Shown here one piece after another: positions 9,087-53,627 of a stretch of DNA of 64,000 nt. Position numbers and translations under genes: made by a program. Below the pieces are notes generated by a model, which worked only from the letters and a program-made list of their open reading frames with translations, was not told where the DNA came from and did no database searches. The stretch lies in assembly GCF_057098645.1 (NCBI RefSeq), contig NZ_CM169472.1, one strand, 5' to 3'. Position 1 is the first letter of the stretch. Each line of letters begins with the position of its first letter.

Positions 9087-9111
9087 AGAAGCCTCCGTTA
9101 TGGAGGCTTCT
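9087..9111. terminator. Hairpin terminator between convergent ssb and yjcB
   Basis: agaagcctcc-gttat-ggaggcttct stem-loop; A-run on the upstream side gives a U-tract for the minus-strand gene. Confidence 0.5.
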
Positions 9112-9116
9112 ACGTA

Positions 9117-9398
9117 TCAGGTCAAAATCATTGGCCATTGTGGCGGTGTCTGATTCATCTCTTCTATCATCACCGACTCGATGTTGTGCCAGATGGCGGT
9201 GATGTCCGCCATTGTGATGCCAAGCAACCCCATTGCGAACCAGCAGGCGGAAACCACGCCCAGACCGCTGCTGATCACTGCAAGCCCGACATAATCAGAC
9301 CGACGAAAACGGATGTTGAGTGTGCTGGCCAGAAACATCATTACGGCACTAAGAAGTTGCCAGCGAAGAAGAACCACGCCAGTGGTGAGGGTAGCCAT
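9117..9398 (-). CDS. yjcB: Small inner-membrane protein YjcB
   Basis: ORF-track entry 9117-9497 trimmed to the internal ATG (MATLTTGVVLLRW...), 93 aa, two hydrophobic segments. Confidence 0.7.
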   Translation of the reverse strand: MATLTTGVVLLRWQLLSAVMMFLASTLNIRFRRSDYVGLAVISSGLGVVSACWFAMGLLGITMADITAIWHNIESVMIEEMNQTPPQWPMILT

Positions 9399-9824
9399 CA
9401 AACAATTCCTCTGAAAAGAGCCGATGCCCTGGACAGCGCGGCGTTGTTCACGGGAGGCGTGGTACACTCTGGCTATCGCGGGGCTTGCAGAACACAAAAA
9501 TGAAACACTCTGTTTGTTTCATTAATTTTGTGAACTATATCACAATTGATTGTTTGTTAGCCAGATTAGGTCGTGACTTTTATTGCTGTACAGATTATGT
9601 GGTTTTTCTGTGGCATTAAGGGCATATCTTCCCGCCGCCCTGCATTCCTGAAGAAAATTAATTTGAATATCAATGAATTATTTTCATCCAGGTGACGATT
9701 AAAAAGGTATCAATTTCAAATCAGGCAAAAGTGCTATTTATACCGTAAGATTTATCTAAAGACGTCGGTAGCCAGGGTTTCACCTTGCAATGGCCGGGTA
9801 TAAACAGGCAGGAAATTGATAGCA

Positions 9825-11411
9825 ATGAGTCATCGTGCACGACACCAATTACTGGCGTTGCCGGGCATTATCTTTTTAGTTCTCTTTCCCATCATTCTTT
9901 CGCTATGGATTGCCTTCCTTTGGGCAAAATCAGAAGTGAATAATCAGCTCCGAACCTTTGCTCAACTGGCACTGGATCAATCCGAGCTGGTCATTCACCA
10001 GGCAGATTTAGTGAGCGATGCAGCAGAACGCTATCAGGGGCAAGTTTGCTCTCCAGCCCATCAAAAGCGAATGTTAAATATTATTCGTGGCTATCTTTAT
10101 ATTAATGAATTGATCTATGCCCGTGATAACCATTTTTTATGCTCATCACTGATAGCGCCTGTAAACGGCTATACGATTGCACCGGCCGATTATAAGCGTG
10201 AACCTAACGTTTCTATCTATTATTTCCGCGATACGCCTTTTTTCTCTGGCTATAAAATGACCTATATGCAGCGGGGAAATTATGTGGCGGTTATCAACCC
10301 TCTCTTCTGGAGTGAAGTGATGTCTGATGACCCGACATTGCAATGGGGTGTGTATGATACGGTGACGAAAACCTTTTTCTCGTTAAGCAACGAGGCCTCG
10401 GCAGCAACGTTTTCTCCGCTGATTCATTTGAAGGATTTAACCGTACAAAGAAATGGCTATTTATATGCGACAGTTTATTCGACAAAACGCCCAATTGCAG
10501 CCATTGTTGCGACTTCATATCAACGTCTTATAGCCCATTTTTATAATCATCTTATTTTTGCGTTACCCGCCGGTATTTTGGGGAGTCTTGTTCTGCTATT
10601 ACTCTGGCTACGTATTCGACAAAACTATTTGTCTCCCAAACGCAAATTGCAACGCGCCCTAGAAAAACATCAACTTTGTCTTTATTACCAGCCAATAATC
10701 GATATCAAAACAGAAAAATGTATCGGCGCTGAAGCGTTGTTACGTTGGCCTGGTGAGCAGGGGCAAGTAATGAATCCGGCAGAGTTTATTCCGCTGGCAG
10801 AAAAGGAGGGGATGATAGAACAGGTAACTGATTATGTTATTGATAATGTCTTCCGCGATCTGGGCGCGTACCTTGCAACACATGCTGATCGCTATGTTTC
10901 TATTAATCTGTCGGCCTCCGATTTTCATACGTCACGGTTGATAGCGCGAATCAATCAGAAAACAGAGCAATACGCGGTGCGTCCGCAGCAAATTAAATTT
11001 GAAGTGACTGAGCATGCATTTCTTGATGTCAACAAAATGACGCCGATTATTCTGGCTTTCCGCCAGGCCGGTTACGAAGTGGCAATTGATGATTTTGGTA
11101 TTGGCTACTCTAACTTGCATAACCTTAAATCATTGAATGTCGATATTTTGAAAATCGACAAATCGTTTGTTGAGACGCTGACCACCCATAAAACCAGTCA
11201 TTTGATTGCGGAACATATCATCGAGCTGGCGCACAGCCTGGGGTTAAAAACAATCGCTGAAGGCGTCGAAACGGAGGAGCAGGTTAACTGGCTGCGCAAA
11301 CGCGGCGTGCGCTATTGCCAGGGATGGTTCTTTGCGAAGGCGATGCCGCCGCAGGTGTTTATGCAATGGATGGAGCAATTACCCGCGCGGGAGTTAACGC
11401 GCGGGCAATAA
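9825..11411 (+). CDS. pdeC: Cyclic-di-GMP phosphodiesterase (CSS-motif sensor plus EAL domain)
   Basis: 528 aa from MSHRARHQ...; N-terminal TM, periplasmic domain with conserved cysteines, second TM, C-terminal EAL domain ([30 protein letters not shown]). Confidence 0.85.
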
Positions 11412-11413
11412 AA

Positions 11414-11737
11414 CTACAGGCGGTGGCGATAATCGCTGGGAGTGCGATCAAACTGCCGACGGAAAACGCGGGAGAAGGTCTGCTGCGAGACATAACCCAG
11501 GTCCATTGCGATATCAAAAATCGGACGCTCGGTGGTGCGCAACTCAACGGCGGCCAGTAACAGGCGGCGTTGGCGAATGTAATCGCCAAGCGTCTGATGC
11601 GTCACCGTGCGGAACATCCGTTGCAAGTACCACTTTGAATAGCCTGATTTTTTTGCGACAACATCAATGTTAAGCGGCTGGTCAATATGCTCGTCAATCC
11701 ATGCGATAAGATCCTGAATAATTTTCTGATGGGACAT
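11414..11737 (-). CDS. soxS: Superoxide-response AraC-family transcriptional activator
   Basis: 107-aa ORF MSHQKIIQDLIAWIDEHIDQPLNIDVVAKKSGYSKWYLQRMFR... matching SoxS. Confidence 0.95.
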   Translation of the reverse strand: MSHQKIIQDLIAWIDEHIDQPLNIDVVAKKSGYSKWYLQRMFRTVTHQTLGDYIRQRRLLLAAVELRTTERPIFDIAMDLGYVSQQTFSRVFRRQFDRTPSDYRHRL

Positions 11738-11793
11738 AAATCTGCCTCTTTTCAGTGTTCAGTTCGTTAATTCATCTGTTGGGGAGTATAATT

Positions 11794-11811
11794 CCTCAAG
11801 TTAACTTGAGG
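11794..11811. promoter_or_regulatory. SoxR operator palindrome within the soxS promoter
   Basis: Perfect 18-bp palindrome CCTCAAGTTAACTTGAGG in the 85-bp divergent soxS-soxR intergenic region. Confidence 0.8.
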
Positions 11812-11822
11812 TAAAGCGATTT

Positions 11823-12287
11823 ATGGAAAAGAAATTACCCCGCATTAAAGCGCTGCTAACCCCCGGCGAAGTGGCGAAACGCAGCGGTGTGGCGGTATCG
11901 GCGCTGCATTTCTATGAAAGCAAAGGGTTGATTACCAGTATCCGTAACAGCGGCAATCAGCGGCGATATAAACGTGATGTGTTGCGATATGTCGCAATTA
12001 TCAAAATTGCTCAGCGTATTGGCATTCCGCTGGCGACCATTGGTGAAGCGTTTGGCGTGTTGCCCGAAGGGCATACATTAAGCGCCAAAGAGTGGAAGCA
12101 GCTTTCTTCGCAATGGCGAGAAGAATTAGATCGGCGCATTCATACCTTAGTGGCGCTGCGTGACGAACTGGACGGATGTATTGGTTGTGGCTGCCTTTCG
12201 CGCAGTGATTGCCCGTTGCGTAACCCGGGCGACCGCTTAGGAGAAGAAGGTACCGGCGCACGCTTGCTGGAAGATGAACAAAACTAA
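11823..12287 (+). CDS. soxR: Redox-sensing MerR-family regulator with [2Fe-2S] cluster
   Basis: 154-aa ORF; MerR HTH ([26 protein letters not shown]) and C-terminal cysteine cluster [12 protein letters not shown]. Confidence 0.95.
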
Positions 12288-12316
12288 AGCGCCACAAGGG
12301 CGCTTTAGTTTGTTTT
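12286..12316. terminator. Rho-independent (bidirectional) terminator after soxR
   Basis: aaagcgcc-acaa-gggcgcttt stem-loop followed by agtttgtttt; A-rich on the other flank. Confidence 0.65.
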
Positions 12317-12430
12317 CCGGTCTTTGTCTTTCTCTCTATCCCGCTGGTACACAGGAGGGTTTCCCCCGACGTCAACACACCTCATTCGAGCACGTGGTGG
12401 AGGTTCCGGTTGGTGTTGATGCTTTAATTG
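12290..12430 (-). ncRNA. ryjA: Candidate small RNA in the soxR-ghxP spacer (position of K-12 ryjA); boundaries approximate
   Basis: K-12 carries sRNA RyjA in this intergenic region, antisense to soxR direction; the shared hairpin at 12286-12316 could serve as its terminator. Not verified by alignment. Confidence 0.25.
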
Positions 12431-31120: not shown

Positions 31121-33268
31121 TTACGCCAGTGCCGCTTCGCGCAGGCGAGTTTTCAACTTGTTGTACTCGTCAATCACGTACTGCTCGGCGGCGCGCTGAT
31201 CGGCGATCGGCTCGACGCGCACGGCGCAGTATTTGTATTCCGGCGTTTTCGTAATCGGGCTTAAGTTTTCGGTAACCAGCTCGTTACAGGCACCAATCCA
31301 CCACTGGTAGGTCATATAAATCGCCCCTTTGTTCGGACGATCGCTGACCTGCGCACGGGTGATAATTTTGCCTTTACGCGAGTGCACCCAAACCAATGCC
31401 TCATCTTCAATACCCAGACGTTTGGCGTCTTCGGTATTGATTTGTGCGTAGCCAGGTTCATCAGCCAGCGCCGCCAGTGCCGCACAGTTACCGGTCATCG
31501 AACGGCAAGAGTAGTGACCAACTTCACGCACCGTTGACAGTACCATCGGGTACTCGTCGGTGAGTTTGTCGATTGGCGCTACCCAGTCGCAGGTGAAGAA
31601 CTGCGCCAGACCGTTTGGGGTATCAAACTTCTCTTTAAACAGATAAGAAGTCCCCTGATCGGCATCTGAAGTATCGCGGCAAGGCCACTGAATGAAGCCC
31701 AGTTCGCCCATTTTCTCGTAAGTCGCACCGTAGAAATCCGGGCACAGATGACGCAACTCATCCCAGATCTCCTGGGTGTTGTTGTAGTGCATCGGATAAC
31801 CCATACGGGTGGCGATTTCACTGATGATTTGCCAGTCCGTTTTCAGATCCCATTTCGGTTCAACCGCCTTGAAGAAACGCTGGAAGCCACGGTCAGCCGC
31901 AGTAAACACGCCTTCATGCTCGCCCCACGACGTTGACGGTAAAATAACATCCGCCGCCGACGCGGTTTTGGTCATAAAGATGTCCTGAACGATAACCAGT
32001 TCCAGATCTTCAAAGGCTTTACGTACTGCCGACAGCTCCGCGTCAGTTTGTAGCGGATCTTCGCCCATAATGTACGCGGCACGCACTTCGCCATGCGCTG
32101 CGCGGTGCGGCAGCTCGCTGATGCGATAGCCGGTATGCGCTGGCAGGCTTTCCACGCCCCAGGCTTTGGCGAATTTCTCGCGGTTAGCCGGATCTTTCAC
32201 ATACTGGTATCCCGGATACGTATCCGGCAGCGCGCCCATATCGCAGGCACCCTGAACGTTGTTCTGACCACGAACCGGGTTAACACCCGCATGTGGCTTA
32301 CCGAGGTTACCGGTCAGCATCGCGAGGCTGGTCAGAGAACGCACGGTTTCCACGCCCTGGTAGAACTGGGTTACACCCATGCCCCACAGGATGGCGGCGC
32401 TTTTCGCCTGGGCATACATCCGTGCCGCCTGACGAATCTCACTGGCGCTGACGCCGGTGATATCTTCAACCGACTCCGGCGTGTAGCCTTCAACGATTTT
32501 ACGATACTCTTCAAAGCCTTCTGTACGGGAAGCGACGAATGCTTTGTCGTACAGATTTTCTTCAATAATGACATGGCCCATCGCATTCAACAGCGCGATG
32601 TTCGAGCCGTTTTTCAGTGCAATGTGCATGTCAGCAATGCGCGCGGTTTCAATTTTGCGCGGATCGCAGACGATAATTTTCGCCCCGTTACGTTTAGCGT
32701 TAATTACGTGATTCGCCACGATTGGGTGGGAATCCGCCGGGTTGTACCCGAAAACGAACACTAAATCGGTATTATCAATTTCGTTAATAGCATTGCTCAT
32801 TGCGCCATTACCGACCGATTGGTGCAGACCTGCAACCGATGGGCCGTGTCAGACACGAGCGCAGCAGTCAACGTTATTGGTACCAATAACGGCGCGCGCA
32901 AATTTTTGCATTACATAGTTGGTTTCGTTACCCGTACCACGCGAGGAGCCGGTCGTCTGGATGGCATCCGGACCGTACTTCTCTTTGATGGCGCTCAGGC
33001 GCTCGGCAACGTAATTCAGTGCCTCATCCCAGGAAACAGGTTCGAGTTTGCCGCCACGCTGGCGACGGATCATGGGGGTTTTCAGGCGCGGGGTCAGGAT
33101 CTGGGTATCGTTAATGAAATCCCAGCCATAATAACCCTTCAGACACAGGGTACCCTGGTTGGTTTTCCCCTGCGCTGCCTCCGCCCGGACGATTTTGCCG
33201 TTATCGACGACCAGGTTGATTTTGCAACCTGATGCGCAATAGGGGCAAACCGTGACGACTTTTTTCAT
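31121..33268 (-). CDS. fdhF: Formate dehydrogenase H (selenocysteine, molybdopterin, 4Fe-4S)
   Basis: Two collinear same-frame ORF-track entries (32849-33268 and 31121-32800) separated by an in-frame TGA at 32849-32851 plus 16 codons; total 715 codons. N-terminal CPYCASGC Fe-S motif; ...VDCCARV-U-HGPSV... context. Confidence 0.9.
32800..32851 (-). other. Selenocysteine UGA codon (32849-32851) with the region expected to hold the bacterial SECIS stem-loop
   Basis: In-frame TGA inside fdhF; bacterial SECIS lies immediately 3' of the UGA on the mRNA. Stem-loop not folded by hand. Confidence 0.55.
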
Positions 33269-40789: not shown

Positions 40790-41497
40790 ATGAAACCCGT
40801 CGTGCTGGTGGTGGATGATGACACGGCTATCTGCGCACTGTTGCAGGACGTGTTAAGTGAACATGTCTTTACGGTTTCAGTCTGCCATACCGGACAGGAG
40901 GCCATATTGCGTATTGAGGGCGATCCTGACATTGCGCTGGTGGTGCTGGATATGATGCTACCCGATACCAACGGCCTGAGGGTATTGCAGCAAATCCAGA
41001 AACTGCGTCCGACATTGCCGGTGGTGATGTTGACCGGCATGGGCAGTGAGTCTGATGTGGTGGTCGGGCTGGAAATGGGCGCGGATGATTACATCTGCAA
41101 ACCGTTCACCCCGCGGGTGGTGGTCGCACGACTGAAAGCGGTGTTGCGACGGGTTGGTGCGCTGGCGGTTAATGACGAGAAAAGCGCCGGGCTGTCATTC
41201 AATGGCTGGTATCTCGATACCATGCGCTGCCAGTTGCACAATCCGCTTCAGCAACATGTCGAGTTAACTCAGGGCGAATATGGCTTGTTACTGGCACTGG
41301 CGCAAAACGCGCGTCGGGTATTGAGCCGCGAGCAGTTGCTGGCGTTCACCCACAGCGACAGCGTGGAGGTGTTTGATCGCACCATCGACGTATTAATCAT
41401 GCGCTTACGACGCAAAATCGAACTCAACCCGCATCAGCCGATGTTGATTAAAACTCTGCGCGGTCTGGGGTATGTCTTCGCTGCCGACGTGCATTAA
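40790..41497 (+). CDS. OmpR/PhoB-family response regulator (receiver plus winged-helix DNA-binding domain)
   Basis: MKPVVLVVDDD..., phospho-acceptor Asp in VVLDMMLPD, conserved Lys in YICKPF, C-terminal LIKTLRGLGYVF winged helix. Start trimmed to the ATG preceded by GGAG. Confidence 0.85.
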   Translation: MKPVVLVVDDDTAICALLQDVLSEHVFTVSVCHTGQEAILRIEGDPDIALVVLDMMLPDTNGLRVLQQIQKLRPTLPVVMLTGMGSESDVVVGLEMGADDYICKPFTPRVVVARLKAVLRRVGALAVNDEKSAGLSFNGWYLDTMRCQLHNPLQQHVELTQGEYGLLLALAQNARRVLSREQLLAFTHSDSVEVFDRTIDVLIMRLRRKIELNPHQPMLIKTLRGLGYVFAADVH

Positions 41498-42495
41498 TCC
41501 GACATTTCTGTTTGCAGCTCTTCCAGCGTTTTCGCCCCGTCGATGGCATTGGCGCATAACAGGCTTGCCCGCGCGCAGGCGTGTGCCAGTTTGATGCTCT
41601 CGGTAAGCGTCCAGCGTTCATGGCAGCCATATAAAAATCCGGCACAAAATGCATCGCCCGCGCCGACGCTGCCGATAATTTCCCGTTGTTCTAACTTTTG
41701 CGAAGGGATCCACACGCTGCCCTGTTCTGGGGTCTCTCCCCACGCCCCTTCCGGGCAGTGGATCACCACCCGCTGGCGCACGCCCGCATCTAACAGTTCA
41801 CGCGCGGCGGCAGCAATATGCGCGATATGCGGTTCGCCGTTGGGTAACCGAATTTCCAGCCCGCTAAACTCCCCGGCCTCCAGTTCGTTAATTACCAGAT
41901 AATCCAGATGGCGCAACGCGGGCAGCACCAGCGGCTGATAACGCGGATCGCCCTTACGGGAGACCAGGTCGAGTGAGGTTTCAAAGCCAGTATCACGCAT
42001 TTGCGCCAGCAGGCGTGCGCTACGGGTGCCGTAAACATCGTCCGGCATATCCAGGCTGTCGAGCAACAGTAAATAGCCGAGATGGAAAATCTTCATGGTG
42101 TTATCGAGCTGATCGAACGCCGGAAGATCCAAAAGTCTGTTTGCACCCGGCGAATGGAAAAACGTCCGCTGCCCGCTTGGGTCTGTCATCACCTGCGACA
42201 TCGACGTCGGGGCAAAGGTAGTGCGCTGCACATGCTGACGATTGACGTGATATTGCTCAAGCATCGCCATGATGTAATCGCCGTCGCTGTCCTGACCGAT
42301 TAGCCCAACCGCCTGTAACGGCAGCCCGGTGCGCATTTTCGCCAGCGTCAGCAGGACGTTAAGCGGCGCACCGCCGGTGGAGCGTTCGCTGTGGGTGATC
42401 TCCGCCAGCCAGCCGCGCTCTGGCCACTGGATAATCTGATGGACGTGGTCAACCAACATATTGCCTGCGGCGATAATCCCTTTACGCTCCATCAT
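41494..42495 (-). CDS. PfkB-family carbohydrate kinase
   Basis: 333 aa; ribokinase-fold signature near the C-terminus (GSVGAGDAFCAGFLYG) and N-terminal GG dipeptide region. Confidence 0.8.
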   Translation of the reverse strand: MMERKGIIAAGNMLVDHVHQIIQWPERGWLAEITHSERSTGGAPLNVLLTLAKMRTGLPLQAVGLIGQDSDGDYIMAMLEQYHVNRQHVQRTTFAPTSMSQVMTDPSGQRTFFHSPGANRLLDLPAFDQLDNTMKIFHLGYLLLLDSLDMPDDVYGTRSARLLAQMRDTGFETSLDLVSRKGDPRYQPLVLPALRHLDYLVINELEAGEFSGLEIRLPNGEPHIAHIAAAARELLDAGVRQRVVIHCPEGAWGETPEQGSVWIPSQKLEQREIIGSVGAGDAFCAGFLYGCHERWTLTESIKLAHACARASLLCANAIDGAKTLEELQTEMSD

Positions 42496-43352
42496 GCCTG
42501 CCCCGCACTGCCAAAAATACGCATCTGTTGTGCAACCGTATCGCTGATGGCGGCTTCCACTGCCAGCAGTAACTCGGCAAACTCGTCATACATCGGCTGA
42601 CGGTGCGCCATTCGGGCCTCAACGGCAGCCAGCGCCGCTTGCGACATGCCAGTGTAGAAATTGATTTTGTGGATACCCAGTTCGATGGCGCGGCGGAAAT
42701 CGGCATCGCTAATCCCTGAGCCGCCGTGTAATACCAGCGGGATAGCAGCCTGCTGGCGGATAGCGTCGAGGCGCGGGAAATCGAGTTTCGGTTCGCCGCG
42801 ATATTTGCCGTGTGCATTGCCAATCGCCACGGCCAACGCGTCAATGCCGGTACGGTCGACAAAATCACGCGCCAGTTGCGGATCGGTAAACAGGGATTCA
42901 TCGGCATGACCATAGAGCGCACCGCCTTCGTCGCTACCCACCGCGCCCAGTTCAGCTTCTACCGATACGCCAACGGCATGGCACATTTTCACCACTTCCC
43001 GCGTCTGGCGGACATTTTCTTCATACCCCAGCGTGGAGCCATCAAACATTACCGAGCTGAATCCCAGCCGCAACGCTTGCACCACCGATTCAAAATGCAG
43101 TCCGTGATCGAGATTTAACACCACCGGAATGGCATGACGCGCCGCTTCAAATTTCACTGTCTCGACCAGGGAATCCAGCGAGATATATTTAAAATGTACT
43201 TCGGCAATGTTGATAATAAAGGGCGAACGTTCTTGTCTGGCAGCAGCAAACAAGGCGCGTAAAAAGTGCGAGTCCAGCACATTAAACGCACCTAACGAAT
43301 AGTGATGTTCGCGGGCATGTGCCAGCCCTTCAGCGAGACAAATCAATGGCAT
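42492..43352 (-). CDS. Class II (metal-dependent) ketose-phosphate aldolase, FbaA/GatY/KbaY family
   Basis: 286 aa; N-terminal MPLI...LAHAREHHYSLGAFNV, LNLDHG and LHGGSG motifs typical of class II TIM-barrel aldolases. Confidence 0.8.
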   Translation of the reverse strand: MPLICLAEGLAHAREHHYSLGAFNVLDSHFLRALFAAARQERSPFIINIAEVHFKYISLDSLVETVKFEAARHAIPVVLNLDHGLHFESVVQALRLGFSSVMFDGSTLGYEENVRQTREVVKMCHAVGVSVEAELGAVGSDEGGALYGHADESLFTDPQLARDFVDRTGIDALAVAIGNAHGKYRGEPKLDFPRLDAIRQQAAIPLVLHGGSGISDADFRRAIELGIHKINFYTGMSQAALAAVEARMAHRQPMYDEFAELLLAVEAAISDTVAQQMRIFGSAGQA

Positions 43353-43366: not shown

Positions 43367-44050
43367 TCAGCGGAACTGGCGGTATTCGTTACACAATACC
43401 AACTGTGCAGGTTCGTCTTCGTCAATCAGGTTGTAGCGGTCCAGTGGCTGTAAAAAGTGGTTATCGTGGTCGTCGTCATTGACAGAAGAGACTTCGCCAA
43501 CCAGAACATCGCCAAAGCCGGTTTCCGCCCAAAAGCTGTGATACAGGCCGGGCGGCAGGCAGATACTTTCGCCGGGAGACAGGCGCAACTGAGTGCCTGC
43601 AGTATGTTTCTGGCGGCAGCCGTCTATCACCACCGTAATGTCACTATCAGCCGTTTGCTCGTTACTATCGGCATTCCACAGTTCAACAATTAAATTACCG
43701 CCGCCGCGATTGATAATGTCCTCACGCTTACGCCAGTGAAAATGCATTGGCGTGACCTGCGCATCGCGCACATGCATGATCTTCTCGGCGTAACATTTCA
43801 CATACGGCATTCCTTTTGCTGAGCCGTTACGTAGGGTAAACAGCGTCAGCCCGTGTGCTGCAAAGTTGTTGCGACCAAAAGCGGTAACATCCCAGCCGAG
43901 TTTAAGATCAAAAACCTCCTCCCACGCGGCGGTGTCGAGCTGCTGCCATTGAGCAGGCGAGAAACTGGCAAAGGGCGGCAGATGTACGTCATGTTGCGAA
44001 AAGAATTGCCGTGTATGGCCGAGAATGTCGTTTATAGCGGAGCGTTTCAT
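43367..44050 (-). CDS. Cupin-fold sugar isomerase, D-lyxose/D-mannose isomerase-like
   Basis: 227 aa; cupin metal-binding region (TPMHFHWRKREDIINRGGG ... PGLYHSFW); resembles the D-lyxose isomerase family as I recall it from a pathogenic E. coli enzyme. Confidence 0.65.
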   Translation of the reverse strand: MKRSAINDILGHTRQFFSQHDVHLPPFASFSPAQWQQLDTAAWEEVFDLKLGWDVTAFGRNNFAAHGLTLFTLRNGSAKGMPYVKCYAEKIMHVRDAQVTPMHFHWRKREDIINRGGGNLIVELWNADSNEQTADSDITVVIDGCRQKHTAGTQLRLSPGESICLPPGLYHSFWAETGFGDVLVGEVSSVNDDDHDNHFLQPLDRYNLIDEDEPAQLVLCNEYRQFR

Positions 44051-44104: not shown

Positions 44105-45046
44105 TTATTTCACCGTCCAGCCTTTGTAATTGCCGACGTTGTTTTTATCGATCATCGTCACCGGGATCAGCACCGGCTCTTTCGGCGCAGGTTTGCCCTG
44201 CAAAATGTCGTAGCCAATTTCCACCGCTTTCGCTGCCATCACCTGGGGATCTTGCGCCGGAGTAGCGACAAACAACGAGTTCTCACGCTTGAGCGCCTCT
44301 TCGGCGTCCGGGCTTCCGTCCACACCGACAATAAAGAACTCGTTACGTTGCGCCTGTTTTGCTGCCAGATCGGCACCGATTGCGGTGGGATCGTTAATCG
44401 CAAATACGCCGTCGATCTTCGGATTTGCCGCCAGCAGTCCCGTCATTACCTCCAGCCCGCCTTCACGACTGCCTTTCGCGTTCTGGTTGTCAGAGAGCAC
44501 TTTGATGTCAGGATGGCGTTTAAATTCAGTCTGGCATCCTTCGACGCGGTTTTGCACGGCGGATACCGGCGGGCCGTTGATGATCACCACATTGCCTTTG
44601 CCTTTCAGGCGATCGGTGATGTATTTACAGGCCATTTCGCCCGCCTGGGTGTTATCGGAGGTGATGGTGGCATCAGCACCTTCTGCCGCTACGTCAACCG
44701 CGACGACTACGATCCCGGCATCTTTCGCCCGTTTCACCGCCGGGCCGATCCCTTTTGAATCGGCAGCGTTGAGGATAATCATATCGACGTTAGCGGCGAT
44801 AAAGTTGTCTATCTGCGACACCTGCTGACCCAGATCGTAGCCGCTGGAAACCAGCGTCACTTTGACGTTATCGCCTGCCAGTTTGCGTGCTTCCAGCTCC
44901 GCGCCTTTGGTGATCTGCACGAAGAACGGGTTCGCCAGATCGCCCACCGTTACGCCTATCGATTTCAGTTCTTTCGCTTGGGCGAACGGTGCTGCGGCCA
45001 GCAGCGCGCCTGCACAGAGCGCGGTCACTAAGGGCTTCAATCTCAT
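44105..45046 (-). CDS. Periplasmic sugar-binding protein of an ABC transporter (RbsB/AlsB-like)
   Basis: 313 aa, signal peptide ending AQA, type I periplasmic binding fold (GVTVGDLANPFF..., GIVVVAVD). Confidence 0.85.
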   Translation of the reverse strand: MRLKPLVTALCAGALLAAAPFAQAKELKSIGVTVGDLANPFFVQITKGAELEARKLAGDNVKVTLVSSGYDLGQQVSQIDNFIAANVDMIILNAADSKGIGPAVKRAKDAGIVVVAVDVAAEGADATITSDNTQAGEMACKYITDRLKGKGNVVIINGPPVSAVQNRVEGCQTEFKRHPDIKVLSDNQNAKGSREGGLEVMTGLLAANPKIDGVFAINDPTAIGADLAAKQAQRNEFFIVGVDGSPDAEEALKRENSLFVATPAQDPQVMAAKAVEIGYDILQGKPAPKEPVLIPVTMIDKNNVGNYKGWTVK

Positions 45047-45064: not shown

Positions 45065-46039
45065 TTATGCACTTTGATGGTGTCGGGTACGGTATTTGTC
45101 GATCAGCACCGCAATGATGATCACCGCCCCTTTGATCACCAGTTGCCAGAAGTAAGAGACGCCCATTAAGGTCATGCCATTGTTGAGCGTGGCGATAATT
45201 AGCGCGCCGACCAGCGTGCCGGTGATGGTGCCGATGCCGCCGACAAAACTGGTGCCGCCGAGGATCACCGCTGCAATGGCATCCAGTTCGTAACCCATGC
45301 CTAAGTTGCCGTTGGCGCTGTACAGCCGTGAGGCGCTCATAATCCCGCCAAGCCCAGAAAGCAGGCCGCTCATGCCATAAACAAACAGCAGCACCAGCCA
45401 GACCTTAATGCCGGTAAGACGCGCCGCCTGCATATTGCCGCCGACGGCGTAGATATGAACGCCAAGCGTGGTGCGGCGTAGAATAAACCAGCACACCACG
45501 ATCACCGCCAGCGCAATCACCACCAGCCATGGGACCGGCCCGAGATAGTTGTTGCCTATCCACTCGAAATTAATGTTGGAGTTGATAACCGTGGTGCCGT
45601 CCGCCAGCAGATACGCCGCCCCGCGCAGCGCCGTATAGGTGCCAAGCGTAACGATAAACGGTGGCAATCCGGCAAAGGCCACCAGCGCGCCGTTGAACAG
45701 CCCCAGCAGCAGGCCGAGCATCAGCGCTGCCGGGATCGACAGCATGGCGAACTCAGGGCTAAGGGAGACGACCATCGCCGCCACCGCTGTGGTGCCGAGG
45801 ATCGAACCCACGGAAAGATCGATCCCGCCGGTCAAAATGATGAAGGTCATCCCCGCGGCCAGAACAATGTTGATCGATGCCTGGCGGGTAATATTCAGCA
45901 GGTTGCTTTCGGTAAAAAAGTTTGGCGCGATAAAGCCAAATACCGCCACGATCAGAATCAAAATGGGCAAGATGCCGACCGTTTGCATCAGATCGCTCAT
46001 CAGCATTTTTTTGGCAGAGGTTTTTGCAGAGGTCGTCAT
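45065..46039 (-). CDS. ABC sugar transporter permease (RbsC-like)
   Basis: 324-aa polytopic membrane protein; 4-bp overlap with the upstream ATPase gene. Confidence 0.85.
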
Positions 46040-47556
46040 GAGGTTACCGCCTGGGAATGGGCGTCGTTGACGCCAGTCGCTAAGGTCATAATGTTTTCCT
46101 GGGTGATGTTTTTGCCGTTTAACTCACCGGCAATGCTGCCTTCGCGCATCACATAGACGCGATCGCTCATTCCCACTATCTCCGGCAGTTCGCTGGAGAT
46201 CATCAGGATCGCCACGCCCTTGCGCGCCATCTCGTTCATGATCCGGTAGATCTCACTTTTGGCGCCAACGTCCACGCCGCGGGTGGGTTCATCGAGCAGT
46301 AAAATGCGCGGGCCAATCGCCACCCAGCGGGAGATCAACAGTTTTTGCTGATTGCCGCCGGAAAGCCCGCCCGCGCGTACCTGGGCATGAGGCACGCGAA
46401 TGTTGAGCAACTTGATGGCGTCATCGGAAATGGTTTGCGCTTTTTTGCGATTGAGCATTCCCCAGCTGGCATCGCGCTCCAGGGTTGCCATGGTGATGTT
46501 TTCGGCTGCTGCCATTTCAAGGAATAAGCCTTGTTCTTTGCGGTTTTCGGTGAGAAAACCAATGCCAAGATCGATGGCTTCGCGCGGGGAGTGGATCACC
46601 ACCGGTTCACCATCGACTTCAATCATTCCGCCTGTCGCTTTCCGCACGCCGAAGATCAACTGCGCCAGTTCGGAACGTCCGGCTCCTACCAGCCCGGCGA
46701 GGCCGACAATTTCGCCGGAACGCACCAGCAGGCTACTCGGCTGGACTTTGCCACCGTCGGTCAGGTGGTGAACATTCAGGCGGGCTTTGCCGAGCGGGAT
46801 ATCGCGCTCTTTATTGAACAGATCGCTCAGTGGCCTGCCGACCATCATCCGCACCAGCTCCCCGGCATTGAGGTTATCGCGGGTCAGGCTGCCAACGTAT
46901 TGCCCGTCGCGCAGCACGCTGACGCGATCGGAAAGCTCATACACTTCCGCCATACGGTGGCTGATGTAGATAATCGCCATCCCTTCATCGCGCAGCCGCA
47001 TAATCAGTTCAAACAGACGGTGAGTTTCACGGGAGGAGAGGGCAGCGGTGGGTTCGTCCATCACCAGAATGCGGCTGTTGCGATGCAGCGCGCGGGCGAT
47101 TTCGACCTGCTGTTGCTCGGCAATGGTCAGCATCATGACTTTATCGCTGGCGTTAAACTGCGCGCCGAGGCGGTCGATCACTCTTTGCGCCTGCACCAGC
47201 ATCTCTTTACGCTGCACCAGCCCGCCGTGGGAAAGCTCGCTACCGAGAAAAATATTTTCTGCCACCGTCAAATTGGGTGCCAGCTGCATCTCCTGATAAA
47301 TCAGCGTAATACCGGCACTTAAGGCATCTTTTGGCGTGCGAATGTGAAAGGGCTTGCCGTCTATGAGGATCTCGCCGCTGGTGGCGGTATACGCCCCCGC
47401 CAGCACCTTCATCAGCGTGCTTTTTCCCGCGCCGTTTTCCCCCATCAGGGCATGGATCTCGCCAGGGTAGACCGTCAAATCCACCCCTTTGAGCGCATAA
47501 AATTTGCCGAAGGCTTTGGCAATATTGCGCATCTCCAGAACTGGCCTGCTGTTCAT
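46036..47556 (-). CDS. ABC sugar transporter ATPase, tandem nucleotide-binding domains (RbsA-like)
   Basis: Two Walker A sites ([20 protein letters not shown]) and two signature motifs (LSSRE-like, LSGGNQQK); start trimmed to [16 protein letters not shown] with GGAG RBS. Confidence 0.85.
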
Positions 47557-47669
47557 GGTGGACTCCTGCGAGGTTGTCGATATCAGCACTCCATCACAGG
47601 AAAGTAAATGCAAAATGTCAGAAGCCGTTCATATTTGTCATATTGCGATTTTTCTTCACGGAGCGTGAT

Positions 47670-49934
47670 ATGGCGCACCCCGGACGTCACTTTTTTGCCA
47701 GCGCGCGCGGGCGATTGCTGCTTTTGAATTTGCTGGTGGTGGCGGTGACGTTGATGGTCAGCGGCGTGGCGGTAATGGGCTTTCGTCATGCCAGCCAGAT
47801 GCAGGAGCTGGTGCAGCAGCAAACGGTGGATGATATGACCGGCAGCCTGAATCTGGCGCGCGACACGGCAAACGTGGCAACGGCGGCGGTGCGATTGTCG
47901 CAGGTGGTGGGAGCGCTGGAATATAAAGGCGAAGCCGAGCGGTTGCAGGAGACACAGCGGGCATTAAAAAGCTCGCTTGCACAACTGGCGAACGCGCCTT
48001 TAGCGCAGCAGGAAGCCGGGCTGGTGACGCGCATCATCACGCGTAGCAACGAACTGCAAACCAGCGTCGGCGGTATGCTGGAGCGCGGGCAAAGGCGGCA
48101 TCTGGAGCGCAACGCGCTGTTAAGTTCGCTGTATCAAAACTTAAGTTATCTGCGGCATCTGCAAAAAGTCACTCACGCGCAAGATGATATTTTGCTTAAC
48201 GAGATGAACCGACTAATTGTTGCCGCTATTGCCACCCCCGCGCCGCAGGCGATTATTCATCAACTGGTCGGGGTAATGTCTGCGTTGCCGACCCACAGCG
48301 ATACGCCATTGGTTAATACGTTACTCAATGATTTCAATGATGAAATGCGTAAACTCGCGCCGCTTTCTGCCGCTCTGGAGCAAAGCGATCTGGCAATCAG
48401 CTGGTATATGTTTCACATCAAAGCGCTGGTGGCGATCCTCAATGGCGACATCAACCGTTACGCCGAACAGGTGGCGACGCTCTCCGGTCAGCGTGTGGCG
48501 CAAAGTTACCAGGATTTGCGCTCCGGCGAGAGGGTGATCATGATTTTCGCCCTGTTAGCGGTGGTGATCACCGCGTTTGCCGGCTGGTATATCTATCGCA
48601 ACCTCGGCACTAACCTGACGGCGATTTCCCGCGCCATGAGCCGCCTGGCGCACGGCGAAGCGGACGTCACTTTTCCGGCGTTACAGCGGCGTGATGAGTT
48701 GGGTGAACTGGCGCGCGCCTTTAACGTTTTTGCCCGCAATACCGAGTCACTCGAACGAACCTCACGGCTGCTAAAAGAGAAGACCACGCAGATGGAGATT
48801 GCCCAAACTGAGCGGCAGGGGTTGGAAGAGGCGCTATTACACAGCCAGAAACTGAAAGCGGTCGGGCAACTGACGGGCGGGCTGGCCCATGATTTTAATA
48901 ATCTGCTGGCGGTGATTATTGGCAGCCTGGAGCTGGTGAATCCGGACTCGCCAGACGCGCCGCGAATACAGCGGGCGCTGCAAGCTGCCGAACGTGGGGC
49001 GCTACTGACACAACGACTGCTGGCGTTTTCCCGCAAGCAGTCCTTACATCCGCAAGCCGTTGAACTGAAAACATTGCTGGAAGAGTTAAGCGAATTAATG
49101 CGCCACTCCTTACCGGCAACGCTGGCGCTGGAGATTGAAGCGCAGTCTCCGGCGTGGCCCGCGTGGATTGACATCAGCCAACTGGAAAATGCCATCATCA
49201 ACCTGGTGATGAACGCCCGTGACGCGATGGAAGGGCAGACGGGAATCATCAAAATTCGTACCTGGAATCAGCGCGTTACTCGCAGCAGTGGGCAGCGTCA
49301 GGACATGGTGGCACTGGAGGTCATCGATCATGGCAGCGGTATGTCGCAGGCGGTGAAAAGCCAGGTATTTGAGCCATTCTTTACCACCAAACAGACGGGC
49401 AGCGGCAGCGGGCTGGGGTTGTCGATGGTCTATGGTTTTGTGCGCCAGTCCGGTGGGCGCGTTGAAATTGAAAGCGCGCCGGGGCAGGGGACAACGGTCA
49501 GATTACAGCTTCCCCGCGCGCTGACGGCGGCGAAAAACCTATCGCCAGCGGCAGTAGAACAGGCTTCTGTCAGCGGCGATAAACTGGTGTTAGTGCTGGA
49601 AGATGAAGCCGCGGTGCGCCAGACCATCTGCGAACAGTTGCACCTGCTGGGCTATTTGACGCTGGAAGCAAGCAGCGGCGAACAGGCGCTGGATCTGCTG
49701 GCGGCATCAGCAGAAATCGATATTTTTATCAGCGATTTAATGCTCCCCGGCGGCATGAGCGGCGCAGAAGTGGTCAATGCGGCCCGCAAACTTTACCCGC
49801 ACCTGACGCTGCTACTCATCAGCGGTCAGGATTTACGCCCCAGCCATAACCCCGCGCTGCCAGACGTGGCGCTGTTGCGCAAACCCTTTACCCGTGCGCA
49901 GTTGGCGCAGGCGCTGGGGCAAATTGAGGGATGA
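47670..49934 (+). CDS. Hybrid sensor histidine kinase (periplasmic sensor, HAMP, HisKA, HATPase, C-terminal receiver)
   Basis: Start trimmed to ATG 47670 (MAHPGRHFF...); two TM segments flanking a roughly 270-aa helical periplasmic domain; H-box GGLAHDFNNLL; ATP lid DHGSGM, GSGLGLS; receiver with Asp in IFISDLMLPG. No HPt domain. Confidence 0.85.
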   Translation: MAHPGRHFFASARGRLLLLNLLVVAVTLMVSGVAVMGFRHASQMQELVQQQTVDDMTGSLNLARDTANVATAAVRLSQVVGALEYKGEAERLQETQRALKSSLAQLANAPLAQQEAGLVTRIITRSNELQTSVGGMLERGQRRHLERNALLSSLYQNLSYLRHLQKVTHAQDDILLNEMNRLIVAAIATPAPQAIIHQLVGVMSALPTHSDTPLVNTLLNDFNDEMRKLAPLSAALEQSDLAISWYMFHIKALVAILNGDINRYAEQVATLSGQRVAQSYQDLRSGERVIMIFALLAVVITAFAGWYIYRNLGTNLTAISRAMSRLAHGEADVTFPALQRRDELGELARAFNVFARNTESLERTSRLLKEKTTQMEIAQTERQGLEEALLHSQKLKAVGQLTGGLAHDFNNLLAVIIGSLELVNPDSPDAPRIQRALQAAERGALLTQRLLAFSRKQSLHPQAVELKTLLEELSELMRHSLPATLALEIEAQSPAWPAWIDISQLENAIINLVMNARDAMEGQTGIIKIRTWNQRVTRSSGQRQDMVALEVIDHGSGMSQAVKSQVFEPFFTTKQTGSGSGLGLSMVYGFVRQSGGRVEIESAPGQGTTVRLQLPRALTAAKNLSPAAVEQASVSGDKLVLVLEDEAAVRQTICEQLHLLGYLTLEASSGEQALDLLAASAEIDIFISDLMLPGGMSGAEVVNAARKLYPHLTLLLISGQDLRPSHNPALPDVALLRKPFTRAQLAQALGQIEG

Positions 49935-50346
49935 TTTTCAGAATTTATCAAGAGGCCTGAAGCAAATGTGCTGCTATTGTGAGCAATTCTGTTCTGAATG
50001 GGATATAAAAGGAATTATGCCAGTACTGACAAGAGGCGATTCACATATGATCGTGATGCCAACCACCTATAGCGATTTCAGTGTTTGTATTAGACACTGA
50101 ACAAGGGGCATTTTGGCCTTATGATGGCACGAAAGTGATCTACGATGGCGGTTGCATTCCGGAAGAGCGTATCTGGAGTATTTCACCGGATCAAAAATGT
50201 CATGGCATTGTGCTGGTGGCGGAAAATAAACAGCGAGCTAACCAGCTAATGGAAGAGTCTGCGCCTTACCGAATTTGAGATTACTCCGCTACTCCGGTCA
50301 TTCACACTCAACTAACGTTAAGCCAGTCCATCGCAGAGACTGGCTT

Positions 50347-51947: not shown

Positions 51948-52491
51948 GGTGTTTCTCCTTCTGATGAATCAGCGTCAGCAGCGTGTCGACCGACTGGCGC
52001 AGGCTACCGTCATTATTGAGCGTATGGCAATCCTGTGGAGTATAGCGGGCAGCGCGCGCCAGCCGGGCGTTAATTTCACTGGCGTTTTCGCGTCCACGGT
52101 TTTCCAGGCGCTGGCGCAGGATCTCTGGCGACACCTGTAAGCAGATGGGCAGCAGCGCCGATGCATAGCGCGCCCGCGCCTGCGGCAGATGGGCGCGTGA
52201 GCCGTTGACCAGCACGTCGAATCCGGCGTGCAGCCAGAGGTCAATCTCGACGCCGACGCCATAATACAGACCGTTGGCGTGCCAGCTTAAGGCCAGCAGA
52301 TTTTGCCCCGCGCGGGTAAAAAACTCCTGCTCGCTCAGGGCGATATGGTTTTCGCTTCCAGCGCTGGCATCGCGCGTGATGTAGCGATGCGCCACCAGTA
52401 GCTGCGCCTGTTCCCGCAGGCGGAGTTCCGCCAGCAGGCTGTCTTTCCCGGAGCCGGACGGCCCCATTAACCAAATCAGTTTTCCCGTCAT
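51934..52491 (-). CDS. phnN: Ribose 1,5-bisphosphate phosphokinase
   Basis: 185 aa, P-loop [10 protein letters not shown]. Confidence 0.9.
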
Positions 52492-53627
52492 CAGAACACC
52501 CTTTTACCCTGACGCCAGACGTGGTCGATATGAATGTGATTGCCCTTGCGATGCGCCAGCACCAGGTCCGCGCGATTGCCCTCGCCAATCACCCCGCGAT
52601 CCTGGAGATTAAGCGCTTGCGCCGGATTTTTAGTCACCAGCCTCACCGCCTGCGGCAGCGTAAAGCGGTTGCTCTGGTCATCGGCCACGCGGAACGCCGC
52701 ATCCAGCAGGCTGGCGGGGTAGTAGTCGGAAGAGAGGATATCCAGCAGGCCAAGCTGCGCCAGTTCACTGGCCGCCACGTTGCCGGAGTGCGAACCGCCG
52801 CGCACGATATTCGGCGCGCCCATCAGCACGTTCATGCCATGCTTGCGCGAGGCTTGTGCCGCTTCGAACGTGGTGGGAAATTCGGCGATCACGCTGCCAA
52901 GCTGGTGGGATTCGGCAACGTGGGCGTGCGTGGCGTCATCGTGGCTGGCGAGGGCAATTTGTCTTGCGCGGCACAGGGCGGCGATAGTTTCGCGATTCGG
53001 CTGCGACCAGCGTGCGGCGAGCGCCAGTTGCTCTTCTTCGTACTGCTGCATCTGCGCATCGGTGAGCGAGTATTTGCCCTGATAATACTCGCGATACTTC
53101 TCGCGGTTGGCGAACTGGCGCTGGCCCGGCGAGTGATCCATCAGCGACACCAGCGTCACCGGCTCGCGCTGCACCAGTTTTTCAAACAGCGGCAGCGTAG
53201 TGTGATGCGGCAGTTCGCAGCGCAGATGCAGGCGGTGCTCGGCGCGGTTGACGCCGCGTTTCTGCGTCTCTTCGATGGCGTTGATCATCTTCTCCAGATT
53301 TTCCAGCCGATCGCCGCCGTCGCGCACGTCGCCAATTGCTACGGCATCCAGTACGGTGGTGATGCCGCTCGCCACCATCAGCGCGTCGTGGCTGCTCATC
53401 GCCGAGTGGGCGGGCCAGTCCACTTTCGGGCGCGGGGTGAAGAATTTATCCAGGTTATCGGTATGCAGCTCAATCAGCCCCGGCAGCAGCCAGCCGCCTT
53501 CGCCGTCCATCGCCTCCGGCAGGCGGCTCTGGCTTTCGGCAAAGGCGCGGATTTCGCCGTCCTGCACCTCCAGCGAACCGTGTACCACCTCGTTTTCCAG
53601 CACCAGTTTGACGTTATTGATAATCAT
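52491..53627 (-). CDS. phnM: RPnTP diphosphatase (amidohydrolase fold)
   Basis: 378 aa; metal-binding LHTDNLDK region. Confidence 0.9.

Follow-up and report, generated by a model that had tools for sequence, protein, structure and literature searches.

The hybrid kinase RbfS/LmvK of the Escherichia coli island OI-167 has no HPt domain and may phosphorylate its partner regulator directly

Introduction

The hybrid histidine kinase VirA of Agrobacterium tumefaciens is a membrane protein with a C-terminal receiver domain and no histidine phosphotransfer (HPt) domain. It phosphorylates its OmpR-type partner VirG directly from the histidine of its DHp domain, and the VirA receiver modulates this step rather than relaying phosphate (PMC4705274). 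In addition, ChvE, a periplasmic protein that binds sugar as part of an ABC system, provides input to the periplasmic domain of VirA (PMC4705274). The TorS/TorR/TorT system of Escherichia coli and Vibrio combines a helical bimodular sensor fold with an OmpR-type partner and an RbsB-like periplasmic protein, TorT, that is encoded nearby. TorS itself is of the unorthodox, tripartite kind, with an HPt domain at its C-terminus, and all three of its phosphorylation sites are required for transphosphorylation of TorR, as stated in the title of Jourlin et al. 1997. Yet other kinases end with a receiver and have no HPt domain of their own, as is the case in the systems RcsC/RcsD/RcsB of E. coli, CckA/ChpT/CtrA of Caulobacter and LuxQ(LuxP)/LuxU/LuxO of Vibrio, all of which depend on a known phosphotransferase that is a protein of its own. 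The signal of LuxQ, too, is read by way of an RbsB-like periplasmic protein.

In the genomic island OI-167 of E. coli O157:H7 EDL933, the gene pair Z5692/Z5684 (EDL5436/EDL5428) was named RbfS/RbfR and described as a riboflavin system (Liu et al. 2022, PNAS, PMC9860305). The same pair, together with the genes lmuKAIZYX, was described in relation to mannose and lyxose under the names LmvK/LmvR (Yang et al. 2023, mBio, PMC10128022), such that Z5684, RbfR and LmvR denote one and the same protein. The riboflavin and mannose reports do not cite each other. The two primary papers disagree on the phosphate route, the one reporting direct transfer in vitro (PMC9860305) and the other describing a hybrid kinase with a postulated Hpt (PMC10128022). 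How phosphate gets to the partner regulator is a minor question that has already been raised in the literature. Here, we analysed this question for the rbfS/lmvK locus in a stretch of 64,000 nucleotides, which is referred to as the window.

Results and Discussion

Identity of the locus

The following gene of the window is almost certainly the rbfS/lmvK gene of genomic island OI-167, as found in E. coli O157:H7 and O145:H28:

47670-49934, plus strand: rbfS/lmvK, hybrid sensor histidine kinase, O145:H28 allele, 754 aa

The DNA of this gene is 100% identical to that of O145:H28 genomes, and the gene is present in 410 of 5426 complete E. coli genomes. The open reading frame begins with an ATG at position 47670, and its coordinates are those of the RefSeq CDS WP_000940957.1, the product of which is annotated as 'hybrid sensor histidine kinase/response regulator'. 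A longer open reading frame starting with TTG at position 47574 was dismissed as a mere mechanical extension. The module is flanked by yjcS and yjdP/phnP in the reference annotation, and the flanks, the gene order and the LmvR box upstream of lmuX are the same as in the published OI-167 system. Likewise, the regulator protein is identical in the window and the published system, the RefSeq CDS WP_000805929.1 being shared by O145 and O157-like genomes. Over 754 aa, the kinase shares 99% identity with the O157-like allele, which has 756 aa. The latter contains a duplication of three residues (FND) that is absent from the O145:H28 allele in the window, and the two alleles further differ by two substitutions (E359A and S556C, as read in the O157-like allele), in the last three residues of the kinase and at the right-hand island junction, where the window has a fragment of a GNAT gene before yjdP. 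Residues H410 and D692 in the published numbering are H407 and D689 here because of the FND duplication. The system itself has thus been published, and our analysis is a correct reading of a known system and no discovery; what is new are the survey of domain architecture and gene neighbourhood in relatives and the TorS-like helical-bundle model of the sensor domain.

Domain organization of the kinase

A Pfam search, combined with the prediction of two transmembrane segments (approximately residues 15-37 and 289-309), gave the following organization of the kinase:

47712-47780, plus strand: first transmembrane segment
47781-48533, plus strand: periplasmic sensor domain, approximately residues 38-288, all-helical in an AlphaFold2 model
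48534-48596, plus strand: second transmembrane segment
48594-48743, plus strand: HAMP domain, residues 309-358 (Pfam PF00672, 4.3e-09)
48864-49517, plus strand: kinase core with HisKA/DHp and HATPase_c domains (Pfam)
49587-49916, plus strand: C-terminal receiver, residues 640-749 (Pfam PF00072, Response_reg, 1.9e-10)

The HisKA match (residues 399-458) contains the H-box LAHDFNNLL with H407 (codon 48888-48890), and the HATPase_c match (residues 501-616) has all of the N, G1, F and G2 boxes. In the receiver, residues E644/D645, D689 (codon 49734-49736), S718 and K738 align with D12/D13, D57, T87 and K109 of CheY. The alpha4 region of the receiver is short and proline-rich.

In a ranking of NCBIfam models, the kinase core was matched best by PRK13557, followed by CckA and a VirA-like model, all far ahead of ArcB and EvgS. 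The core therefore belongs to the CckA/VirA/FixL/AtoS type and not to the ArcB/EvgS type; it resembles CckA and VirA more closely than TorS, and its H-box is of the same type as that of VirA. The two CckA models (NF046020 and NF046026) scored 301.9 and 246.7 bits, below their cut-offs of 1000. The VirA-like model (NF010411) scored 218.2 bits against a cut-off of 647, and aligned solely with residues 376-749, i.e. the core and the receiver. LmvK is thus no orthologue of VirA. Moreover, since HAMP was the one domain detected by Pfam between the second transmembrane segment and the DHp domain, and since the VirA-like match begins at residue 376, there is no detected counterpart of the phenolic-sensing linker of VirA.

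Absence of an HPt domain from the kinase and the module

The original prediction held that the kinase ends directly after its receiver and that the module encodes no HPt domain, and both statements were borne out. The C-terminus lies 5 residues beyond the Response_reg match (640-749 of 754), and the Pfam search returned HAMP, HisKA, HATPase_c and Response_reg, but no Hpt match even at E≤10. The C-terminal HPt domain after the receiver, by which tripartite kinases of the ArcB, BarA, EvgS and TorS type are recognized, is therefore absent from this kinase. We also considered a hidden or truncated HPt domain after the receiver, or one in an adjacent small open reading frame. A six-frame translation of positions 49900-50320 gave no Pfam match, and inspection by eye identified nothing in this region besides the following feature, which is followed by yjdP:

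50075-50278, plus strand: GNAT acetyltransferase gene fragment, 67 aa, at the right-hand island junction (RefSeq pseudogene, translation)

This fragment is no part of the signalling system and leaves no room for an HPt open reading frame. Among the other genes of the module, NCBIfam profiles and annotation revealed neither an HPt protein nor a further response regulator. The same is true for the annotation of the reference stretch that aligns with window positions 1 to about 52500. Beyond this point, the window and the reference are separated by an indel in phnM, and the open reading frames of the window continue the phn operon; what looked odd at phnM/phnL merely reflects that the window and the genome that served as coordinate reference come from different strains.

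The regulator, the sugar operon and the LmvR box

In accordance with the original prediction, the only response regulator of the module is encoded on the plus strand at the far side of the sugar operon. The operon names below follow PMC10128022:

40790-41497, plus strand: rbfR/lmvR, OmpR/PhoB-family response regulator, 235 aa (NCBIfam, RefSeq)
41494-42495, minus strand: lmuK, PfkB-family carbohydrate kinase, last gene of the operon
42492-43352, minus strand: lmuA, class II ketose-1,6-bisphosphate aldolase (NCBIfam NF005284, 572.8 bits, cut-off 406)
43367-44050, minus strand: lmuI, D-lyxose/D-mannose isomerase (NCBIfam NF051472, 438 bits, cut-off 350)
44105-45046, minus strand: lmuZ, periplasmic sugar-binding protein of the RbsB/AlsB type (NCBIfam)
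45065-46039, minus strand: lmuY, ABC transporter permease
46036-47556, minus strand: lmuX, sugar ABC transporter ATPase, first gene of the operon, ATG at 47556
47629-47643, minus strand: LmvR/RbfR binding box ATATGACAAATATGA, a direct repeat ATATGA-N3-ATATGA, in the lmuX-lmvK intergenic region

The operon had been described as convergently transcribed. This applies to its orientation towards the regulator gene, with which the six-gene minus-strand operon (47556 down to 41494) shares a 4-bp overlap at 41494-41497, but not towards the kinase gene, from which it diverges across an intergenic region of 113 bp (47557-47669). The best NCBIfam matches of the regulator were OmpR, VirG and PhoB, all below their cut-offs, and its phospho-acceptor is D54 (codon 40949-40951). 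For LmuZ, the matches were RbsB (1e-43), AlsB (3e-30) and, as a weak resemblance, TorT (6e-11), again all below cut-off.

Phosphorylated LmvR binds the ATATGA-N3-ATATGA box and activates the divergent lmuXYZIAK operon for lyxose and mannose uptake and catabolism. At another site of the genome, it also activates the promoter of the LEE gene ler. The repeat of the box lies within the footprint published for PlmuX, at -41 to -62 (PMC10128022). In the 64-kb window, ATATGACAAATATGA is the only exact match, and there is accordingly no second exact box upstream of lmvR. Matches with two mismatches occur at chance frequency (6 observed, 3.0 expected). In an alignment of window positions 47540-47690 with their counterparts (three sequences), the mean column identity was 96%, and E. 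coli and Citrobacter did not differ in the box or its flanks. In Citrobacter, the sequence upstream of lmvR showed no conservation.

We examined the possibility that the regulator at 40790-41497 is not the partner of the kinase, and that the output is the receiver of the kinase itself or another regulator. The points in its favour are no more than the 6-kb separation, the lack of an operon link and the report that lmvR is induced by mannose or lyxose whereas lmvK is not (PMC10128022). Against this stand published genetics: the single deletion of lmvK or lmvR lowers lmuKAIZYX expression on mannose, and neither lmvK H410A nor lmvR D54Q restores growth on lyxose as well as the respective wild-type allele does, the difference being significant (PMC10128022). 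Furthermore, purified RbfS was reported to pass phosphate to RbfR in vitro (PMC9860305). In our survey, the kinase and regulator genes were co-inherited in every context that was long enough, including two with about 25% sensor identity. The pairing assumed in the original prediction is thus upheld by published data with which our own agree, while the opposite reading has effectively been refuted by published genetics and is highly improbable.

Conservation of the architecture among relatives

To a large extent, the architecture is shared by relatives of the kinase. All 120 of the 120 closest homologues have the same four Pfam domains and no HPt domain (PF01627), with lengths of 724-777 aa when complete. 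Seven distant full-length relatives of 728-873 aa, found through the sensor domain, all end within about 20 residues after the receiver and also have no PF01627. As some of them are about 870 aa long, we considered the loss of an ancestral HPt domain in E. coli. The HPt-sized extra segment of these proteins (about 115 aa) is a PAS domain that follows HAMP and precedes DHp, and their receiver, too, is C-terminal; this idea was therefore rejected.

The residues E/D-D, D, S/T and K were kept in nine of nine aligned receivers, while the sensors were only 21-79% identical, which suggests that the receiver is functional. A comparison of the alpha1 'specificity' residues of LmvR and the kinase receiver in five orthologous pairs gave no usable covariation: these residues are conserved within each class, and the DHp helix is almost invariant.

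The gene neighbourhoods of the kinase were inspected at eight distinct loci (from seven different relatives) over up to 10 kb on each side, several contigs being much shorter. In these neighbourhoods there was no gene with a recorded HPt match and no phosphotransferase gene that could encode a ChpT-like partner. An OmpR-type regulator gene was found in all four contexts that were long enough to show one, and a sugar ABC transporter likewise lies near the kinase gene in every locus of sufficient length. The contexts of six of the seven relatives (the exception being L010) have an ABC-transporter gene immediately or closely upstream of, and divergent from, the kinase gene; a gene for an RbsB-type binding protein is visible in five of them, and the contexts L009 and L011 show one neighbouring gene at most. 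The module has spread horizontally, occurring in Escherichia, Citrobacter and AT-rich relatives with about 25% sensor identity.

The route of the phosphate

The original prediction had named two alternatives, an HPt protein encoded elsewhere or direct transfer, and these are exactly the two positions taken in the literature. By analogy with VirA and VirG, we lean towards direct transfer, albeit with modest confidence. The phosphate would then pass from H407 of the DHp domain to D54 of LmvR, and the tethered receiver would be a competing intramolecular acceptor or gate and no relay station. Drawing off phosphate as a sink, and perhaps also recruiting the regulator, it would set the threshold and the shut-off of the response. 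Such a route is consistent with the spread of the cassette, since the horizontal movement of a cassette that brings no HPt gene is easier to account for if none is needed. It is also consistent with the PNAS paper, according to which purified RbfS autophosphorylates, and the addition of RbfR, with no HPt added, yields phosphorylated RbfR and less phosphorylated RbfS (PMC9860305).

Several points count against direct transfer. The in vitro assay was performed at a kinase to regulator ratio of 1:10, and the main text gives neither the construct nor the time scale (PMC9860305). In competition for the DHp domain, a tethered receiver should have the advantage over a free regulator, and direct signalling would therefore need an extra feature, such as recruitment of the regulator. 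Capra et al. reportedly found in 2012 that hybrid kinases discriminate less strictly between regulators and can transfer phosphate in vitro to regulators that are not their partners. Positive transfer in vitro is therefore weaker evidence here than it would be for an orthodox kinase. Lastly, a relay intermediate would show the same strict conservation of the receiver.

Indeed, the catalytic receiver residues that are kept across the family would also suit a relay from H407 to D689, then to the histidine of an HPt domain encoded elsewhere and finally to D54 of LmvR. In E. coli, the candidates would be RcsD and the HPt domains of ArcB, BarA, EvgS and TorS, or else an unrecognised protein. A short, proline-rich alpha4 recalls the degenerate alpha4 of the CckA relay receiver (PMC9981736), the CckA models were the second and third best NCBIfam matches of the kinase core, and CckA was its best match in the PDB (5idj, 4e-40). 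RcsC-RcsD-RcsB provides an E. coli precedent for a split relay and is cited in the main text of the mBio paper, the model of which draws 'an unknown Hpt' by a dashed arrow (PMC10128022). The same main text names D692 once, in the domain description, and describes no D692 mutant (PMC10128022); the main text of the PNAS paper makes no mention of the kinase's receiver (PMC9860305). A plasmid with rbfSR alone has been reported to work in three other EHEC serotypes and in Citrobacter rodentium, but this experiment does not discriminate between the routes, because these hosts are all enterobacteria and share the core HPt domains.

Points against the relay are the in vitro transfer that took place without any HPt protein, and the negative searches in the kinase, all downstream frames, the module and the recorded matches near the kinase genes of the seven relatives. 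Whereas separate phosphotransferases serve RcsC, CckA and LuxQ, none is encoded in any of the inspected neighbourhoods of the relatives of LmvK. In addition, the cassette has reached hosts as different as Escherichia, Citrobacter and the AT-rich relatives. E. coli is not known to have a stand-alone HPt protein, nor is there a known precedent in this species for a kinase that uses the HPt domain of another. Taken together, we regard a relay as rather unlikely, though worth keeping in mind.

Alternatively, phosphorylation of the receiver could be immaterial, and the receiver could instead serve to dock or recruit LmvR, or inhibit its own kinase by steric means alone. [quoted passage not shown] On the other hand, the resemblance to VirA extends over no more than the core and the receiver. 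A docking-only role is disfavoured because the five catalytic residues, which would be needless for docking, are kept through the 21-79% divergence of the sensors. We therefore consider this role improbable.

The sensor domain and a possible role of LmuZ

The AlphaFold2 model of the periplasmic sensor is all-helical with a mean pLDDT of 85.4. Its best compact Foldseek matches were the TorS sensor of V. parahaemolyticus (3i9y; TM 0.70 when normalised to the target, rmsd 4.6), PilJ (7zjr), McpS (2yfa) and the TorS-TorT complex (3o1h). These matches have E-values of only about 1e-3 and TM scores of 0.4-0.5 when normalised to the query, and searches of the PDB at the sequence level, with the single protein and with a profile of 12 sequences, returned just coiled-coil noise. 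By this model, the sensor would be a TorS-like helical bundle. The likeness to the TorS system would extend to the OmpR-type partner and the RbsB-like periplasmic protein encoded nearby, and the PNAS paper gives RbfS and RbfR as 43% and 56% similar to TorS and TorR, respectively (PMC9860305); LmvK differs in having no HPt domain.

These parallels make LmuZ a candidate co-sensor. The sugar input could at least in part occur through docking of LmuZ on the helical sensor, as TorT docks on TorS or ChvE on VirA. The idea draws on the fold matches to TorS and TorS-TorT and on the adjacency of transporter and binding-protein genes across the family. It is countered by the RbfS/LmvK papers, which attribute sensing to the kinase itself, and by the report that riboflavin raised autophosphorylation of purified RbfS (PMC9860305). 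We put forward a contribution of LmuZ to sugar sensing as a tentative proposal, which we consider less likely than not.

Implications

Combining these views, LmvK/RbfS might be an enterobacterial counterpart of VirA, with a receiver that acts as sink or gate, no HPt protein to be found and sugar read via LmuZ. As a whole, we consider this picture speculative and somewhat doubtful. If it were true, a sensor type with more than one possible input route might accommodate both of the published signals, riboflavin and mannose. The wiring of RbfSR/LmvKR is of practical interest because it links these gut signals to type III secretion, and the system is present in the two most dangerous EHEC lineages. 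The phosphate route decides whether the island forms a signalling cassette that is complete in itself or relies on the HPt domains of its host, and this bears on how readily the island raises virulence after horizontal transfer.

A hybrid kinase without an HPt domain

The features of the kinase and of its presumed regulator are as follows.

Features of the kinase and regulator genes (domains according to Pfam)
40790-41497, plus strand: OmpR-type regulator (LmvR), D54 codon at 40949-40951
47670-49934, plus strand: kinase ORF, 754 aa, ATG start
Kinase residues about 15-37 and about 289-309: hydrophobic segments
Kinase residues 309-358: HAMP
Kinase residues 399-458: HisKA
Kinase residues 501-616: HATPase_c
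Kinase residues 640-749: Response_reg
Codon 48888-48890: phospho-histidine H407 in the H-box LAHDFNNLL
Codon 49734-49736: receiver aspartate D689

The kinase ORF of the original prediction was confirmed, with exactly the stated coordinates; a longer ORF from a TTG at 47574 is a mechanical extension of it. The two hydrophobic segments enclose a periplasmic domain of ~250 residues, the N, G1, F and G2 boxes of the core are complete, and the receiver also has E644/D645, S718 and K738. The protein ends 5 residues past the receiver. No HPt match was obtained in the protein with Pfam, even at E≤10, and there were zero Pfam matches downstream in all frames of 49900-50320, a stretch containing a 67-aa GNAT gene fragment followed by yjdP and nothing else. 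The assignment as a hybrid kinase without HPt is therefore borne out. On all defining features the protein is a hybrid kinase, and the C-terminal HPt that defines unorthodox kinases is absent. Since hybrid kinases lacking an HPt are widespread, RcsC of E. coli being one, this is a correct observation on a known system.

Identity and published work

Several E. coli O145:H28 chromosomes match the kinase gene at 100% DNA identity, and strain 95-3192 is identical to the window across the island. The locus is an allele of RbfS/LmvK, a system already characterised twice, and the eight-gene module is island OI-167. It was found in 410 of 5426 complete E. coli genomes, flanked by yjcS on one side and yjdP/phnP on the other, a site that in other E. 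coli strains is occupied by allose utilisation loci (PMC10128022).

Liu et al. 2022 (PMC9860305) named Z5692/Z5684 RbfS/RbfR and reported that riboflavin increases RbfS autophosphorylation, that RbfR receives phosphate from purified RbfS~P (kinase:regulator ratio 1:10), that RbfR~P binds the ler promoter, and that a plasmid with no more than rbfSR transfers the response to other EHEC serotypes and to Citrobacter rodentium. The REC domain of RbfS is also listed in a 2024 review. In Yang et al. 2023 (PMC10128022) this gene pair is called LmvK/LmvR and the operon lmuKAIZYX, and LmvK is described as a hybrid kinase carrying H410 and D692. Single deletion of lmvK or lmvR lowered lmuKAIZYX expression on mannose, and H410A and D54Q alleles complemented growth on lyxose significantly more poorly than the wild type (PMC10128022). 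Pairing of LmvR with a kinase other than LmvK is contradicted by the published genetics and is effectively excluded; LmvK and LmvR are cognate partners.

The two papers differ in the signal, which is riboflavin in PMC9860305 and mannose/lyxose in PMC10128022, where the word 'riboflavin' is absent from the text. They also differ in the footprints (the ler promoter and PlmuX, respectively), and the ATATGA-N3-ATATGA repeat is not obvious in the 21-bp ler site, TCTCACATAATTTATATCATT.

Regulator, operon and intergenic region

Six genes, all on the minus strand, separate the regulator from the kinase; they encode a PfkB kinase, a ketose-bisphosphate aldolase, a D-lyxose/D-mannose isomerase, an RbsB-like binding protein (LmuZ), an ABC permease and an ABC ATPase. 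This operon had been described as convergent, which holds towards the regulator (4-bp overlap) and not towards the kinase, where transcription is divergent from a 113-bp intergenic region. There, LmvR~P binds at 47629-47643, activating the divergent operon; it also activates ler. The ATATGA-N3-ATATGA repeat at this position is the sole exact match within the window and was spotted on the plus strand independently of PMC10128022, in which the LmvR footprint covers it at -41 to -62 of PlmuX. An alignment that runs through the lmuX-lmvK intergenic region, with Citrobacter and both E. coli alleles, has a mean column identity of 96%, and the LmvR box and its flanks are unchanged in all three sequences.

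Homologues, neighbourhoods and alleles

The 120 nearest homologues span Escherichia clades, Shigella, Citrobacter (82% identity) and Salmonella; all 120 share the four kinase domains and, if complete, measure 724-777 aa. The sensor domain is rare, with matches in 87 of 1.84 billion representatives, mainly fragments. Through it, seven distant full-length relatives (728-873 aa) were found, all of which terminate within about 20 residues beyond the receiver. The ~115 extra residues in the longer relatives were considered as an HPt; this was ruled out, as they proved to be a PAS domain located between HAMP and DHp.

In Citrobacter freundii (2947-19700 of its locus), the identical eight-gene module adjoins the als operon, and the module recurs in identical form in a relative whose sensor is 56% identical. 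At about 25% sensor identity, two relatives keep the gene set, the regulator gene lying there between those for the enzymes and those for the transporter, and in another the kinase is divergent from an ABC transporter and an FGGY kinase. No HPt match was recorded among the neighbourhood genes of the relatives, covering up to 10 kb per side as the contig permitted, several contigs being much shorter.

The O157-like allele contains a 9-bp tandem duplication, GATTTCAAT (window 48300-48345, codons about 216-228), which inserts FND in the periplasmic sensor domain and is absent from the O145:H28 allele of the window. Published numbering is therefore three residues off (H410/D692 for H407/D689). The right-hand junction of the island (49922-50278) also varies by lineage: homology to the O157-like genome ends within the last kinase codons (...GQIEG* in the window versus ...GQEN*), and the 67-aa GNAT acetyltransferase fragment before yjdP is present in the window but not in the O157-like genome. 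This difference fits the independent acquisition put forward in PMC9860305. In Citrobacter, an intact allose (als) operon and rpiB persist next to the module instead of being replaced by it; the E. coli arrangement may reflect insertion followed by als loss, or replacement from a Citrobacter-like donor.

Other features of the window

Between yjcE and actP, espX5 (16136-17428, minus strand) encodes a pentapeptide-repeat type III effector; the stretch carrying it (16001-18000, low GC of 0.385) is a second horizontally acquired insertion. GC is also low (0.41) in 2001-4000, between tyrB and aphA, where a frameshifted hypothetical gene (RefSeq pseudogene, about 3130-3352) lies inside a 174-aa mechanical ORF (2867-3391). 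In fdhF (31121-33268, minus strand), an in-frame TGA at codon 140 (32849-32851) results in two mechanical ORFs; this is the selenocysteine codon known from formate dehydrogenase H rather than a sign of a pseudogene. phnM (52491-53627, minus strand) is full length (378 aa), versus a shortened 240-aa version in the O145:H28 genome RM12581, the annotation reference; the window thus derives from another strain of this lineage.

Sensor domain

No PDB match to the sensor domain was found at the sequence level. Its AlphaFold2 model is all-helical (pLDDT 85), and the best compact structural match is the Vibrio TorS sensor 3i9y (TM 0.70 to target), with further compact matches to PilJ, McpS and TorS-TorT complexes. 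This fold match, and the position of the kinase next to a sugar ABC transporter across relatives, lead us to propose tentatively that sugar could be sensed through LmuZ docking on a TorS-like sensor domain.

Route of the phosphate

Whether an HPt is encoded elsewhere or transfer is direct, with the receiver as a phosphate sink, as the original prediction asked, is precisely where the two papers part ways. PMC9860305 reports transfer in vitro without an HPt, and its main text leaves the kinase receiver unmentioned and lacks the words 'hybrid' and 'HPt'. PMC10128022 assumes a relay without evidence, its model invoking "an unknown Hpt"; its main text confines D692 to the domain description and describes no D692 mutant.

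We lean slightly towards direct transfer, in which phosphate would pass from H407 straight to D54 of LmvR and the kinase receiver would act as a competing acceptor or gate. This reading is based on the transfer in vitro without an HPt, on the horizontal movement of the cassette with its regulator and no recorded HPt gene alongside, on a kinase core of the CckA/VirA/FixL/AtoS group rather than the ArcB/EvgS group, and on VirA as a worked precedent. VirA, a hybrid kinase without an HPt, is itself the direct phosphate donor of the OmpR-type VirG; its receiver has an inhibitory as well as a recruiting role, and its periplasmic domain takes input from a sugar-binding protein (PMC4705274). By analogy the present kinase may operate alike, although it is not a VirA orthologue; its NCBIfam scores are far under the cut-offs of the VirA-like and CckA equivalog models.

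Four points speak against direct transfer. In vitro transfer by hybrid kinases may be promiscuous, as Capra et al. reportedly found in 2012. Five catalytic receiver residues are retained in 9/9 aligned family members, the sensors of which are just 21-79% identical, and the alpha4 region is short and proline-rich; such an intact active site and alpha4 would suit a CckA-like relay intermediate equally well (PMC9981736). Moreover, a tethered receiver is expected to win over the regulator at the DHp, and all hosts shown to respond with rbfSR alone have core enterobacterial HPt domains. A phosphorelay through RcsD or a borrowed HPt is therefore unlikely but still has to be reckoned with. A non-phosphorylated docking role for the receiver appears improbable. 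Direct transfer from H407 to D54 is our slightly favoured reading, and the question of the phosphate route in this system is a genuine but modest one.
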